UHGV virus genome: UHGV-0246870
Origin: a virus
Reading direction: 5' to 3' (one strand)
Length of the DNA: 21,952 bases
In this document: positions 17,680 to 21,839 of the stretch, one piece after another
Layout of the letters: every line of letters begins with the position of its first letter
How positions within the stretch are numbered: the stretch's first letter is position 1
Position numbers and translations under genes: made by a program
The notes under the pieces: model-generated
What the model was told of the DNA's origin: nothing
The model's database searches: none
The model's input: only the letters and a program-made list of their open reading frames with translations

Positions 17680-17801
17680 GTCTTTTTCCCTTTTCTGGTT
17701 AACGTGACATACCAATAACTCTTGTCGAAAAAGCCAGCAAGGTGAAAAGTTGGTATCCACAACCACCGAAACGTTTACCGTACTGCCCCCACGTCCAGGG
17801 C

Positions 17802-17821
17802 AAAAAAAAACCGCACGGCGG
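17802..17821 (-). terminator. Candidate terminator, minus strand (tR'-like position)
   Basis: Short GC hairpin CCGC-ACG-GCGG followed on the minus strand by nine T (plus-strand A-run 17802-17810). Confidence 0.4.
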
Positions 17822-17933
17822 CGGGTTTAAGCTGTGTGGCGAAGTAACCACTCTTAACACGATACTGTAGCTTTTGCGTACGCGTTAGCATTTTTGTAAA
17901 ATACCTTACCTTCACATCACTTTAGTCGAAAAA

Positions 17934-19724
17934 ATGAACAACCATTTAAAACTAAAACAAATTATGGCATCCGCTCAGATTGAGCCATTTATTAGACATA
18001 TTCGTTTCCCATTTTTCAAAAACCTCGCCGAAGGAAGCAAAATCGATTTTGATTATCCAGTCACGGCGTTGGTCGGTCAAAATGGAACGAATAAAAGCTC
18101 AGTTTTAAGAGCCCTTTTCGGCTCACCAAACAACTATTCATTAGGTAGCCTATGGTTTTCTACAGATGTGGATGAAATTAAAGACGGTGGTCGCTCAAGA
18201 TTCATTTATGGATATTATGATAAAGCTACTGATTCTATTGTTGAAGTAATCAAAACCCGAATTTCTAAAGAAAATGATCCTGACTACTGGGAACCTTCTA
18301 GGCCTCTAAAATCAGATAATATGGCTACTATGCCTGATACAATACTTTCGGATAACCAATTAAAAACACGATGGAAAGCCATTGATAAAAATGTAATCTA
18401 TTTAGATTTCAGAGCAACGATAAGTGCATTCGATAAATTCTTTTATCATTCTGACTTTCATACATATCCCAAGAAGGATTATCTTAGAAAACGCAGTCAA
18501 ATGCTAAGAGAAATCATCGATAACGATCTAAAAAAATATCAACCCCACAAAGGTAAAAAAGATAAACTCTTTGTCAATACTTTATTAGGCAAAAATAAAG
18601 TTGAGGCAATCAGCAAAATTTTAGGGCGAAAATACACTAGTATTAGACTTATCGAGCATTGCTTATTTACGAATGACAAAGCTCCAACAATTATACTTCA
18701 GTCAGAAAACTTAAAATATTCTGAAGCATTCGCTGGTAGTGGAGAATTCGCCGTATCTATTTTAGTACATAAACTAATAGACAGTCCAAACGCATCACTA
18801 ATTCTTTTAGACGAACCTGAAGTATCGCTTCACCCTTCAGCACAATGCCAATTAATGGAATTTTTATCTGAACAAGCAATTAAAAAGAAACATCAAATTG
18901 TGATATCCACTCATTCATCAACAATAGTAAAAGACTTACCGAAAAATGCTATAAAATTATTTTGCCTGAATGATAAATTAGGAAAAGTTGATGTTCTGCA
19001 AAATGTCAGCCCAGAAGAATCTTTCTTCATCCTTGGTGAGCGAATCGAGAAGAGAACAGTTATTGTAGAAGATCGCTTGGCTAAGAGGTTTGTAGAGAAA
19101 GCTCTTAAAGCAGGTGGTGAAGCATTATTAAACTCCTTTGAAGTCAAGCACTTTCCTGGAGGGGCCGGAAGTATTTTTCAAACTTTAGCAGCCCCATTAT
19201 GTGTTGCTAACGTTAAAAACGTTATTTTTTTGCTAGATGGTGATCAATCTATTGTTGATAACTACCCAACCTCTGACTCAATACCAGAAAACGAGAACCC
19301 TAATCTTCAGGATATTATAAAATCAATAACAAACCAAGACATCAAATTTAACTGCGATGGCTCTAAAGGTGTAGCTAATCATAGCCAAAAATATAAAATG
19401 CAAAGAGATTTCATCGATTTCATTCACGATAGCATCGGTTTCCTTCCTGTTTACACGCCTGAAATATTTCTTATTGAAAATGTCTATGGAGACTACAAGG
19501 AATATAAAGAATTAATTTCGAAAGACGTTCAAGATGCTAAACAAATTACTAAGGAAATTTGTAAACTCGATACTGGGCTGGATAATGTTACTAGTGATGA
19601 TATCTTTGAAACTCAAATTAGAATGCTAAATAAAATACCGAATGATCATGAAATGTTAACGAAAACTCGAGAGTTGCTGCAAATCTTTTTAGATAATGAT
19701 ACTATCAGACCAAGAGTGAGGTAG
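17934..19724 (+). CDS. OLD-family-like ATP-dependent nuclease candidate (N-terminal ABC/AAA ATPase, C-terminal Toprim-like)
   Basis: 596 aa. Walker A GQNGTNKSS, Walker B ILLDEPEVSLHP, H-loop ISTHS. C-terminal VIVED ... FLLDGDQS resembles the Toprim Glu and DxD motifs. AT-rich codon usage unlike the flanking phage genes. Confidence 0.7.
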   Translation: MNNHLKLKQIMASAQIEPFIRHIRFPFFKNLAEGSKIDFDYPVTALVGQNGTNKSSVLRALFGSPNNYSLGSLWFSTDVDEIKDGGRSRFIYGYYDKATDSIVEVIKTRISKENDPDYWEPSRPLKSDNMATMPDTILSDNQLKTRWKAIDKNVIYLDFRATISAFDKFFYHSDFHTYPKKDYLRKRSQMLREIIDNDLKKYQPHKGKKDKLFVNTLLGKNKVEAISKILGRKYTSIRLIEHCLFTNDKAPTIILQSENLKYSEAFAGSGEFAVSILVHKLIDSPNASLILLDEPEVSLHPSAQCQLMEFLSEQAIKKKHQIVISTHSSTIVKDLPKNAIKLFCLNDKLGKVDVLQNVSPEESFFILGERIEKRTVIVEDRLAKRFVEKALKAGGEALLNSFEVKHFPGGAGSIFQTLAAPLCVANVKNVIFLLDGDQSIVDNYPTSDSIPENENPNLQDIIKSITNQDIKFNCDGSKGVANHSQKYKMQRDFIDFIHDSIGFLPVYTPEIFLIENVYGDYKEYKELISKDVQDAKQITKEICKLDTGLDNVTSDDIFETQIRMLNKIPNDHEMLTKTRELLQIFLDNDTIRPRVR

Positions 19725-19727
19725 ATA

Positions 19728-20768
19728 ATGACTAAAAAGATACATGTATACGATTTTTTTTCCGGCTGCGGAGGCACTAGTGCAGGCCTAAAAGCAGTGG
19801 GTATGGAAATTATATTTGGTTTAGATATTGATCTAGACTCGTCTAATACCTTCAAGAAAAACAATCCATTAGCACATTTCATCAATGGTGATATCAAAGA
19901 TACACATGTTGAAGATATTAATCATCTAATTTCTGACTCAAAAAAATGTAAAGCCCTGACTTTGTTTTGCGGATGTGCCCCATGTCAACCATTCTCAAAA
20001 CAGAACAAAACACGGAACAACGACGATCCCAGGAAAGATCTCCTGACTGAATTTGCACGTTTTGTATCTTATTATGTTCCTGATTTCGTACTGATAGAAA
20101 ATGTGCCTGGAATCCAAAACGTCGATATCAATAACGGAAACTTCCAGAAATTTCTTGAAGTTTTAACTCATCATAACTACAACGTTGATTTTGGTGTTGT
20201 TCCTGCTTTGTGGTTCGGAGTTCCTCAGACCCGTGAACGTTTTGTTTTGCTGGCGTCAAGACACACACATATTAAGCTCCCACCCAAAACTCATGACGGA
20301 GTAGAAACTCCGTTTGCAACGGTAAGAGATTGGATCGGTAATTTACCACCTATAGCTGCAGGTGAAACTCATAAAGAGATAATTGATCACACAGCAGCCA
20401 GGCTGTCCGAACTGAATATTAAACGCATAAAAGCTACCCCAGAGGGAAAAGGAAGGGAGTCTTGGCCTGAGAATTTGATCTTAGAATGCCATAAGAAATA
20501 TAAAGGGCATACGGATGTTTATGGACGTCTTTCATGGGACAAACCTGCAAGTGGCTTAACGACTAGGTGTATAAGCTATTCGAATGGACGTTTCGGGCAT
20601 CCTGAACAAGACCGAGCAATTTCAGTTAGAGAGGCTGCGTTATTACAGACATTCCCATTAGACTATTCCTTCACGGGGTCGTTAGTATCAAAAGCAAAAC
20701 AAATTGGGAATGCGGTTCCTCCCAAGATGGCTGAAGCACTTGGGAGAGCTATAATTTCGTCGATTTAA
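19728..20768 (+). CDS. DNA (cytosine-5)-methyltransferase
   Basis: 346 aa with C5-MTase motifs: I FSGCGG, IV GCAPCQ (catalytic Cys), VI ENV, VIII QTRERF, X GNAVPP. ATG is 3 nt after the upstream stop, with GAGG within the upstream gene end. Confidence 0.85.
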   Translation: MTKKIHVYDFFSGCGGTSAGLKAVGMEIIFGLDIDLDSSNTFKKNNPLAHFINGDIKDTHVEDINHLISDSKKCKALTLFCGCAPCQPFSKQNKTRNNDDPRKDLLTEFARFVSYYVPDFVLIENVPGIQNVDINNGNFQKFLEVLTHHNYNVDFGVVPALWFGVPQTRERFVLLASRHTHIKLPPKTHDGVETPFATVRDWIGNLPPIAAGETHKEIIDHTAARLSELNIKRIKATPEGKGRESWPENLILECHKKYKGHTDVYGRLSWDKPASGLTTRCISYSNGRFGHPEQDRAISVREAALLQTFPLDYSFTGSLVSKAKQIGNAVPPKMAEALGRAIISSI

Positions 20769-20790
20769 GCGAAGCCCTATTGGGCTTCGC
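20769..20790. terminator. Perfect 9-bp stem hairpin between convergent genes (candidate bidirectional terminator or insert boundary)
   Basis: GCGAAGCCC-TATT-GGGCTTCGC. Starts 1 nt after the C5-MTase stop and contains the last codons and stop of the Q-like gene. No strong U-tract on either side. Confidence 0.4.
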
Positions 20791-21133
20791 TTAACAGCGA
20801 CAAAACACCTGATATGAACCCCATAGCTGTTTGAAGTTCTTTGCGAATAGTTCCATCACAACATTTTCTTCTTTTTGCAATCGTCCTCAGTGAAATCCCG
20901 ATAACAAAGTGGGCAATGATCAGCTCATATTCTTCTGGTTTATATTTCCGCAGGCGGGCCACACAACCGTCTATCATAATACCTTCATCATCATCACACT
21001 GGAGGCGTGACTTTTTACCGTGTGGTAGAAGCCCCTTGAAGCCTGCCGCTATCGACTGCCAATCGACACCACTATTTTCTGCTGCAGCCCATGCCCCCCA
21101 GCGGTCTAAAACCTCATACATATCACGCCCCAT
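20777..21133 (-). CDS. Q: Late-gene antiterminator Q (small QuuD-like type)
   Basis: About 118 aa from ATG 21133 (SD GAGGTGA). MGRDMYEVLDRWGAWAA...GFKGL...CDDDEGIMIDGCVARL resembles the DLP12 QuuD-type Q as I recall it. Directly downstream of rusA, as in lambdoid nin regions. Confidence 0.65.
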   Translation of the reverse strand: MGRDMYEVLDRWGAWAAAENSGVDWQSIAAGFKGLLPHGKKSRLQCDDDEGIMIDGCVARLRKYKPEEYELIIAHFVIGISLRTIAKRRKCCDGTIRKELQTAMGFISGVLSLLSEAQ

Positions 21134-21494
21134 TACTATCACCTCTAATTTCGCAAATCTTCACGCCCAACCGACCACCAGGAACGACCTTACCGCGCAC
21201 TATATTGATTTCATCAAACTGCTCGTCATCGATAAGCAGTCCCGCATGCGTTAGTGCATCCAGCGGTGCTTTCAGGATATTGTCCAGGTCACGACGGCGC
21301 TTATCCGGCGGCTCTGCAATGATCTTTATCGCCAGCCTTCCGGACAGGTTTAATTTCAGCCGCTGCTGGCGAACAATAAGCGCCACATCACGGCGATAAC
21401 GCTCACCGGCTTTTGATACAAAATATGTGCTGCCACGACGACGCCAGTAGGTGTTCACCGTCGGCGGGTAAGGCAAAACAAACTCTATACGCAT
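21123..21494 (-). CDS. rusA: Holliday junction resolvase RusA
   Basis: 123 aa. VLPYPPTVNTYWRRRG ... PDKRRRDLDNILKAPLDALTHAGLLIDD matches the RusA family pattern. Confidence 0.85.
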   Translation of the reverse strand: MRIEFVLPYPPTVNTYWRRRGSTYFVSKAGERYRRDVALIVRQQRLKLNLSGRLAIKIIAEPPDKRRRDLDNILKAPLDALTHAGLLIDDEQFDEINIVRGKVVPGGRLGVKICEIRGDSNGA

Positions 21495-21506: not shown

Positions 21507-21839
21507 TTACCCGAGCACGCCGGTTGCAAAGGCGCGATCAAGAAAACGAAAAATTAAATCAATCTGGGAACCATGCTTTTCTTCAAATGCCAGCGGATCA
21601 GCATGAAGTTCGTTGTGATGCTCCCGGCACAACGGTAACGTGAAAATATCGTGGGCTTTTGTCCCTATTCCGCCCTGACCATGACCAATCAGGTGATGGG
21701 GATCGTCTGCTGGCTTACCACAACACGCACACGGCTGTGTCTTCACCCAGCGTGTGTATTTCTCGTTAACCCAGCGGCGACGTTTAGGTCGTTTCATGAA
21801 AGATTCCGGAGACTCAGGATCAACGGCAATGCTGACCAC
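21507..21839 (-). CDS. nin-region protein with HNH-like Cys/His zinc-binding motif (DUF968/DUF1364-like), N-terminus uncertain
   Basis: CACCGKPADDPHHLIGHGQGGIGTKAHDIFTLPLCREHHNELH motif. Sits upstream of rusA. The reading frame stays open to the window end (21952), so the true start may be the internal ATG at 21797 or lie outside the window. Confidence 0.55.
   Translation of the reverse strand: MVSIAVDPESPESFMKRPKRRRWVNEKYTRWVKTQPCACCGKPADDPHHLIGHGQGGIGTKAHDIFTLPLCREHHNELHADPLAFEEKHGSQIDLIFRFLDRAFATGVLG

Follow-up and report, generated by a model that had tools for sequence, protein, structure and literature searches.

An OLD-family ATPase/Toprim protein linked to a C5-cytosine methyltransferase: a possible restriction–modification-like module in a lambdoid prophage

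OLD-family nucleases are among the commonest building blocks of bacterial immunity, and each class is defined by its partner: the published classes 1 to 4 are stand-alone, helicase-linked, retron-linked and PARIS (PMC10568477, PMC6755086). How each class discriminates self from non-self is a central question. The virus genome UHGV-0246870, a stretch of 21,952 nt analysed here and called the window, carries an insert of two genes only, coding for a 596-aa ATPase/Toprim protein (referred to here as AT) and a C5-cytosine DNA methyltransferase (MTase). The linkage of these two genes is near-obligate and co-inherited across phyla and phages, and an OLD-family nuclease in a restriction–modification (R–M)-like partnership with a C5-MTase is probably an unnamed pairing.

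The first-pass annotation of the window had already put the pairing forward as a candidate undescribed module, and the searches bear this out. No PADLOC v2 model fits full-length AT and none of OLD classes 1 to 4 corresponds to the pair. In the full-text literature no system joining an OLD or ATPase-Toprim protein to a C5-MTase was found described; REBASE and the current DefenseFinder were outside the scope of this search, and an earlier computational mention is possible. REase_II was not among the 25 best PADLOC matches of AT and no Pfam RE_* family matched it, so that no known restriction-enzyme family was recognisable in the protein. RefSeq labels AT as "ATP-dependent nuclease" or "AAA family ATPase" and its partner as "DNA cytosine methyltransferase".

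The two genes and their products

As read from the open reading frames (ORFs) of the window, the AT gene occupies 17934..19724 on the plus strand and the MTase gene (346 aa) 19728..20768 on the same strand, beginning 3 nt past the AT stop codon, exactly as had been proposed. At the junction (19718..19730, plus strand) a GAGG Shine-Dalgarno sequence (19718-19721), located within the 3' end of the AT gene and 6 nt before the MTase start, is followed by the TAG stop (19722-19724), the 3-nt spacer and the ATG at 19728. This layout is consistent with co-transcription and translational coupling. The GC content is 34.4% for the AT gene, 40.5% for the MTase gene and 51.2% for the remaining window; an earlier estimate of about 35% against 50% therefore holds for the AT gene and the flanks but not for the MTase gene. 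An alternative AT start is M11 at 17964. Many database homologues are annotated as 586 aa, and a clear Shine-Dalgarno sequence is missing at both candidates (17934 and 17964), which leaves the N-terminus of AT uncertain.

AT is an N-terminal ABC ATPase fused to a C-terminal OLD-type Toprim nuclease domain; both the ABC ATPase motif set and the Toprim Glu and DxD motifs that mark the OLD family were found, all on the plus strand. The Walker A motif (P-loop) GQNGTNKSS lies at 18075..18101 (aa 48-56, K54), with G48, N50, G51 and K54 each shared by at least 95% of the 69 homologues compared. No block of the family is more strongly conserved than the signature-like sequence YSEAFAGSGEF (18717..18749, aa 262-272). 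It is followed by the Walker B motif and D-loop LILLDEPEVSLHP (18798..18836, aa 289-301; D293, E294), which aligns with the Walker B motifs of Thermus scotoductus OLD (TsOLD, 6p74) and of P2 Old, and by the H-loop STHS (18906..18917, aa 325-328, H327). In the C-terminal part the Toprim Glu motif VIVED (19059..19073, aa 376-380; E379, D380) maps to strand one of the Toprim fold in the model, and the invariant DxD motif, D435-G436-D437 within LLDGDQS (aa 433-439), is encoded at 19236..19244. All of the AT motifs quoted in the first-pass annotation are present, although the DGD codons had been placed one base off, at 19235-19243. The spacing of 56 residues between Glu and DxD is the same as in HEC-04, where the corresponding E319, D375 and D377 are experimentally essential and their mutation abolishes defence.

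Past the Toprim core, a helical region contains P509-E510 and K536 (19458..19541), each conserved in at least 95% of the homologues. The helical domain of Bp OLD supplies E508 and K562 (PMC6755086), and E510 and K536 of AT are candidates for the second-metal Glu and the catalytic Lys, respectively. The equivalence is putative, and the spacing of E510 and K536 differs from that of E508 and K562. The complete set of positions conserved at this level is K54, D293/E294, H327, E379/D380, G409/G410, D435-G436-D437, P509/E510 and K536.

Profile and structure searches led to the same architecture. Pfam identified the ABC-type ATPase families AAA_15 (1.6e-15) and AAA_21 (1e-13). The best PADLOC profile was HEC-04 (2.7e-35), aligned over residues 210-457 of AT and positions 156-397 of the 494 in the profile, and the retron I-B effector profile ATPase-Toprim_I-B matched residues 43-467 at 1.2e-23; both matches cover the proposed Toprim motifs. 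Among phage families, phrog_3940, of unknown function, matched nearly the full length at 1e-63. An AlphaFold2 model built from 30 homologues had a predicted local distance difference test score (pLDDT) of 87, and its top full-length Foldseek matches in the Protein Data Bank were Thermus OLD 6p74 (E 2.5e-13) and then three GajA structures. The C-terminal 236 aa searched alone gave no Pfam match, the Pfam OLD and Toprim models missing this half of the protein, so the Toprim assignment rests on the PADLOC profiles, the structure and the conservation. When the family alignment was compared by hhalign with the single sequence of P2 Old, only the segment from Walker B to the H-loop was aligned, and this comparison is thus uninformative on the Toprim domain. 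Taken with the conserved catalytic residues, the Pfam, PADLOC and Foldseek results uphold the OLD-family ATPase/Toprim architecture claimed beforehand. At E <= 1e-30 the family counts 554 cluster representatives (clustering at 50% identity), and with some 550 such clusters it is neither a singleton nor ubiquitous.

The second protein, judged by its motifs, is an ordinary and complete C5-cytosine DNA methyltransferase. It matched PF00145 at 2.2e-59 (positions 2-323 of 324; 202 bits against a cutoff of 22), TIGR00675 dcm at 6e-42 (score 144 against a cutoff of 100.65) and PADLOC MTase_II at 3.6e-91; its matches to DruM and DrmMII in PADLOC are generic C5-MTase matches. The canonical motifs announced by the first-pass annotation were all located, in canonical order and on the plus strand: I, FSGCGG (19758-19775); IV, PCQ with the catalytic C86 (19980-19997); VI, ENV (20097-20105); VIII, QTRER (20226-20240); IX (20628-20657); and X, GNAVPP (20706-20723). 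The nearest solved structures are the DNMT1 catalytic domain, M.HaeIII and M.HhaI. The sole clue to a target sequence of the MTase is the label "HgiDII" on a 69%-identical homologue, probably given automatically. Within the clade of the window the target recognition domain (TRD) is well conserved, with 48-74% identity to the window MTase, and the pairs of this clade probably share one specificity for that reason.

Linkage and wider gene neighbourhoods

A signature-block pattern searched over 185,579 species-representative genomes returned 80 AT loci from many phyla. A C5-MTase gene was present inside the 6-kb flanks in 70 of the 80, and the phyla with such loci include Proteobacteria, Actinobacteria, Bacteroidota, Firmicutes, Planctomycetes, Patescibacteria and Melainabacteria. 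In about 48 of the 80, AT and the MTase gene are immediate neighbours with the same orientation, whichever comes first, usually with a gap of less than 50 bp or with overlapping ends. Ten loci had no MTase; four of these are on truncated contigs and three hold the most distant homologues (27-28% identity). On viral contigs the MTase accompanied AT in 63 of 68 near-full-length loci and was adjacent in 61. The reciprocal test started from four MTase homologues (59-67% identity), picked regardless of their neighbours. A gene of about 590-606 aa was directly upstream in all four, with AAA_15 or AAA_21 detected on at least one contig of each, in contexts that included the lambdoid Q-lysis gap, sites beside integrases and phage tail genes. 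The first-pass annotation had named conserved co-occurrence beforehand as the point on which its proposal could fail, and co-occurrence proved strong in all three surveys (70/80, 63/68 and 4/4).

The pair was also found at 84% nucleotide identity in eight complete E. coli genomes, and a version diverged to about 70% is present in others. At the three E. coli loci examined, it lies on the opposite strand between Q and the late/lysis genes in 3/3. All of the closely inspected contexts are mobile elements or defence hotspots: the lambdoid Q-lysis gap (E. coli prophages and a Hafnia-type contig), islands bordered by integrases, and the tail regions of phages. A tblastn search of a plasmid collection with AT returned only one distant full-length homologue, at 26% identity. 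The carriers encountered in this survey were prophages, viral contigs and chromosomal islands, and plasmids are essentially free of the pair. One metagenome contig (L085), which encodes the MTase found in Hafnia alvei (P0139), holds a prophage with the same pair; this prophage also codes at L085:6444-8708 (minus strand) for a 754-aa protein with DNA_methylase (C5) and Dam domains, upstream of the DUF968 and Q genes.

Pairwise divergence of AT is correlated with that of the MTase (Mantel r = 0.50, p = 0.001). Relative to the 84% nucleotide-identity allele, the synonymous divergence (dS) was 1.16 for AT and 0.95 for the MTase, with ratios of non-synonymous to synonymous divergence (dN/dS) of 0.042 and 0.059, so both ORFs are real genes under strong purifying selection. 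C5-MTase genes are rare in genomes, and chance adjacency at such a frequency is therefore not credible on general grounds. Adjacent and co-inherited MTase and nuclease genes, as looked for in a Type II R–M system, are what was found.

Nevertheless, AT is not confined to the two-gene form. In seven loci (L018, L023, L027, L032, L042, L059 and L064) the gene for R.HpaII (PF09561; RE_HpaII, 5e-143) lies between an M.HpaII-type MTase gene and AT, forming a single operon with 4-bp stop/start overlaps (e.g. L018:2438-6530). An eighth R.HpaII locus, L070, has the order AT, MTase, R.HpaII. Since these HpaII-type R–M operons include AT, it is also the third component of a classical Type II system. A vsr gene precedes the operon in L059 and L064, and Vsr is present in 15 loci. 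In eight loci AT adjoins a GHKL ATPase with HATPase_c_3 and a C-terminal Hypoth_Ymh domain, which matches PADLOC REase_II (6e-25). The GHKL gene stands between the C5-MTase gene and AT in L013, L024, L026, L034, L041, L063 and L075, while in L028 the contig ends before any upstream MTase gene. A GHKL/HEF_HK gene is found between MTase and AT in five to six Bacteroidota loci, four of which have a Response_reg_2 receiver protein next to it: L025, L030 and L077 have the order MTase, HEF_HK, receiver, AT; no receiver ORF was called in L033 and L069; and L072 has HEF_HK, receiver and a disrupted AT, in a flank without an MTase. Components of Mza are neighbours of AT in several actinobacterial and betaproteobacterial loci (MzaB/C/D, e.g. 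in L060 and L066). A published account of MORC/paraMORC R–M systems (PMC2292703) was considered for these arrangements; it accounts for the GHKL, Vsr and Dcm neighbours and is silent on an ABC-Toprim partner.

Three different MTase families partner one AT clade. Segment-wise analysis of co-variation between AT and the MTase TRD gave partial r values of about -0.04 to -0.15 overall, with no specific signal; within the clade the values were uniform (0.40-0.54) and no segment stood out. The most conserved non-catalytic part of AT, the ATPase insert, is the same across the MTase families. Judged from this variety of partners and from the lack of TRD co-variation, AT is a portable cassette, a nuclease that attaches to systems based on C5 methylation, and not a restriction enzyme with a matched recognition domain of its own. 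Its attachment to HpaII-type R–M, GHKL, two-component-like and Mza sets suggests a general effector cassette that is aware of 5-methylcytosine (5mC).

The prophage setting

The insert is opposite in strand to its neighbours and lies between the Q antiterminator and the late-transcription/lysis region of a lambdoid prophage. Every flanking gene that could be identified is on the minus strand and belongs to the typical set of such prophages, in agreement with the position first proposed for the insert. The gene for the Q antiterminator (20777-21142, minus strand; phrog_79, 4.8e-45) converges on the MTase gene across an 8-nt gap and lies outside the module; it likewise neighbours the pair in the E. 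coli and Hafnia-type prophages. The genes for RusA (21123-21494) and an HNH/NinG-like protein (21507-21839) follow on the minus strand.

On the lysis-gene side of the insert there is a small minus-strand phrog_331 ORF. A second DNA MTase gene (16285-17331, minus strand; 348 aa) matches the phrog DNA methyltransferase families and is of the N6/N4 type by its motifs. It sits between the insert and the tRNA/lysis genes, so that the prophage has two MTases, this one and the C5-MTase of the pair. Two tRNA genes, tRNA-Gly(TCC) and tRNA-Thr(TGT) (15963-16116, minus strand), are located upstream of the holin gene (15009-15401, minus strand), and the endolysin gene lies at 14361-14747 on the same strand. 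The equivalent position in related E. coli prophages that carry the pair (L001) is occupied by tRNA-Ile, Arg and Arg. The two tRNAs were the only Rfam matches in the window, and no extra RNA gene was found.

Upstream of AT, the intergenic region 17810..17933 is homologous to phages in its left part: the stretch 17700-17903 is common to Stx and other lambdoid phages, and homology to phage records stops near 17903. A terminator-like site, a minus-strand hairpin followed by a run of nine T residues (17822-17810), may be the late terminator tR'. The region probably holds the phage late promoter/terminator region together with a putative divergent promoter of the insert; a promoter scan gave matches no more numerous than in shuffled sequence. 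The copies of a 31-nt imperfect direct repeat ending GTCGAAAAA lie at 17702-17732 and 17903-17933, the second directly abutting the ATG of the AT gene. No significant flanking repeats were found around the insert. A phage with the same Q gene but without the insert was sought, and only rusA was matched. A second AT-rich stretch (12000-14100, 40-45% GC), situated between the lysis and terminase genes, contains small ORFs only, for example a Cys-rich one of 71 aa (13528-13743, minus strand) and one of 69 aa (13867-14076, minus strand). It may be another moron slot.

Possible function and relation to known systems

The reading favoured here, tentatively and at somewhat under an even chance, is that the pair forms a methylation-gated, R–M-like defence module with an OLD-family nuclease. 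Such a module would be horizontally mobile, a moron lodged in the lambdoid prophage between the Q gene and the late genes. The C5-MTase would mark a short target in both host chromosome and prophage. The SMC/Rad50-type ABC heads of AT are predicted to bind ATP and hydrolyse it, AT probably sitting on DNA as a dimer or in a larger complex, and the two-metal site of the Toprim domain (E379, D435, D437 and probably E510 and K536) would nick or degrade incoming DNA that lacks the mark. By this route the lysogen would exclude superinfecting phage. We infer all three of the essential elements, namely that methylation blocks AT, that the substrate is DNA and that the outcome is superinfection exclusion. 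In the two-gene form AT is the sole candidate nuclease next to the MTase, and the characterised relatives of AT, P2 Old, GajA, the retron Eco8 effector, AriB and HEC-04, are all anti-phage nucleases.

Several observations weigh against this reading. Methylation sensitivity of AT is putative. In the HpaII-type loci (seven, plus the eighth) and the eight GHKL loci, AT is not the sole or obvious restriction component. No segment of AT co-varies specifically with the TRD, and a matched sequence specificity of AT's own is unlikely because the ATPase insert is the same for every MTase family. The gene order is nuclease-first, with apparent translational coupling and no C-protein, an awkward arrangement for a restriction enzyme that is active constitutively and has to establish itself in a new host. 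Two of the relatives, P2 Old and AriB, cleave tRNA and not DNA. Finally, about 20 loci add HpaII R–M, GHKL or two-component-like genes, and these leave room for an abortive, guard or accessory role.

These points bear on the alternatives to different degrees. It is unlikely, yet the foremost alternative, that the pair acts by methylation-gated abortive infection, the C5-MTase marking self DNA, the ABC ATPase sensing only unmethylated (foreign, replicating) DNA and the Toprim domain serving as an effector on a target other than DNA (e.g. a tRNase), with translation arrest or death as the result in place of destruction of the invader's DNA. P2 Old and PARIS AriB are Toprim tRNases, the ABC part of such proteins senses DNA structures or phage proteins, and HEC-04 is toxic on induction. 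The conserved MTase linkage would be explained equally well, and a generic sensor needs no region co-varying with the TRD, which fits the null result above. On the other hand, GajA, Class 1 Vibrio OLD, TsOLD and Bp OLD cut DNA, and if any unmethylated DNA set off such a response, normal uptake of DNA would become costly for the cell. A role as guard or back-up effector of a C5-MTase-based R–M system is rated slightly lower again. AT would be kept inactive by the MTase or by the R–M complex and fire when a phage inhibits, depletes or evades the R–M system, and the two-gene form would represent a pared-down variant whose MTase is mainly guarded bait. PrrC, an NTPase-nuclease of ABC-like type, lies within the EcoprrI R–M locus. 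By analogy with it, and with PARIS, which senses anti-restriction proteins, the seven M.HpaII-R.HpaII-AT loci (with R.HpaII downstream in an eighth), the eight GHKL-AT loci, the five to six with HEF_HK and receiver genes, the proximity to Mza genes in several loci and the association of one AT clade with three MTase families could all reflect guarding. However, about 48 of the 80 loci, like nearly all copies carried by phages, lack a restriction gene that could be guarded, and phage inhibitors of Type II C5-MTases are no known common threat.

It is improbable that AT, as a Rad50/SMC-like ATPase-nuclease, instead mitigates damage in the manner of Vsr, processing lesions of C5 methylation (covalent MTase-DNA adducts, or T:G mismatches from deamination of 5mC) and not foreign DNA. 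The characterised OLD-family relatives are all defence nucleases, the loci are defence hotspots on prophages, and most C5-MTases work without such a partner; moreover, AT occurs together with Vsr and not in its stead. The idea of two independent morons, an orphan C5-MTase evading host restriction and a stand-alone HEC-04-like abortive nuclease, is the least probable of all and has very little left in its favour. Orphan MTases are frequent in phages, this prophage has its second MTase at 16285-17331, and HEC-04/IbfA and Class 1 OLD work as single genes, but the linkage in 70/80 genome loci, 63/68 viral loci and 4/4 reciprocal tests spans unrelated phyla, non-phage contexts and both gene orders, with correlated divergence. 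Mere co-location of AT and the MTase is effectively excluded by these data.

Should the methylation-gated, R–M-like reading be true, one branch of the OLD family would use an epigenetic self mark, and R–M biology would gain a nuclease fold and a type of motor that are both new to it. The broader claim, held with a shade less confidence than that reading and also short of even, is that the pair represents an unnamed and widespread class in which an OLD-family ABC-ATPase/Toprim protein reads C5-cytosine methylation as the self mark, AT being either the first Toprim-fold restriction enzyme or an abortive effector licensed by unmethylated DNA. The module is compact, at 2.8 kb, and in E. coli lambdoid prophages it occupies the position where Stx phages carry toxin genes; these features make it amenable to experiment and give it a bearing on phage-host range and on phage therapy.

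Compared with the described OLD classes, AT differs mainly in its partner. Class 1 OLD genes are defined as stand-alone (PMC10568477), as for P2 Old and TsOLD (6p74), whereas AT is near-obligately MTase-linked, and sequence similarity to this class is limited to the ATPase motifs. HEC-04/IbfA shares with AT the fused architecture, the Glu-to-DxD spacing and the best PADLOC profile match. Its defence needs the Walker A and E/D/D residues. However, the match covers only residues 210-457 and AT is about 100 aa longer than the 494-position profile; HEC-04 is a single gene, also embedded in Hma systems, whereas AT has the MTase as neighbour. Among the plasmid matches of AT by tblastn at E <= 1e-8, none was in a record annotated with ibfA. 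Gabija GajA (Class 2) has the same two-domain fold and accounts for the second to fourth Foldseek matches, but its partner is the UvrD/PcrA/Rep-like helicase GajB, and there is none in the window. UvrD helicase belongs to no recurrent neighbour cluster of AT and is nearby only in L035, within a defence island. The retron Eco8 effector (Class 3) again shares the two-domain fold, while neither the window nor the typical AT locus has a reverse transcriptase or non-coding RNA next to AT. In PARIS (Class 4) the AriA ATPase and the AriB Toprim protein (DUF4435) are separate, whereas AT fuses both in one ORF; the AriA profile matches the ATPase part of AT only.

Among other two-gene and multigene systems, WonAB/PD-T4-4 likewise consists of two genes, is carried by prophages and includes an ABC ATPase of the OLD clade. 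Identity with it was rejected, as WonAB lacks an MTase and its nuclease, of the PD-(D/E)xK type, is a protein separate from the ATPase (PMC12137116). Mza, Druantia II and DISARM also hold a C5-MTase, but their MzaB/C/D, DruE/F/G and DrmA/B/C are missing from the insert of the window. PrrC-EcoprrI and PARIS resemble the pair in that ABC-type NTPase and nuclease effectors are genetically tied to R–M or anti-restriction sensing, as in the M-R.HpaII-AT and M-GHKL-AT loci; they differ in that they accompany Type I R–M systems or stand alone and have no dedicated C5-MTase partner.

With classical Type II R–M systems the pair shares adjacent, co-oriented and co-inherited MTase and nuclease genes on mobile DNA, and its C5-MTase is one of the usual Type II sort. 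To our knowledge, restriction nucleases have the PD-(D/E)xK, HNH, GIY-YIG, PLD or half-pipe folds, with SF2 or AAA+ motors, and not an OLD-type ABC ATPase with a Toprim domain. The nuclease of AT, by contrast, is OLD-type, with methylation-sensitive cleavage putative; if AT is a restriction enzyme, it would be the first Toprim-fold restriction nuclease and a new catalytic class of R–M enzyme. The likeness to Type III Res/Mod systems lies in the presence of an ATP-using nuclease subunit beside an MTase that bears the specificity.

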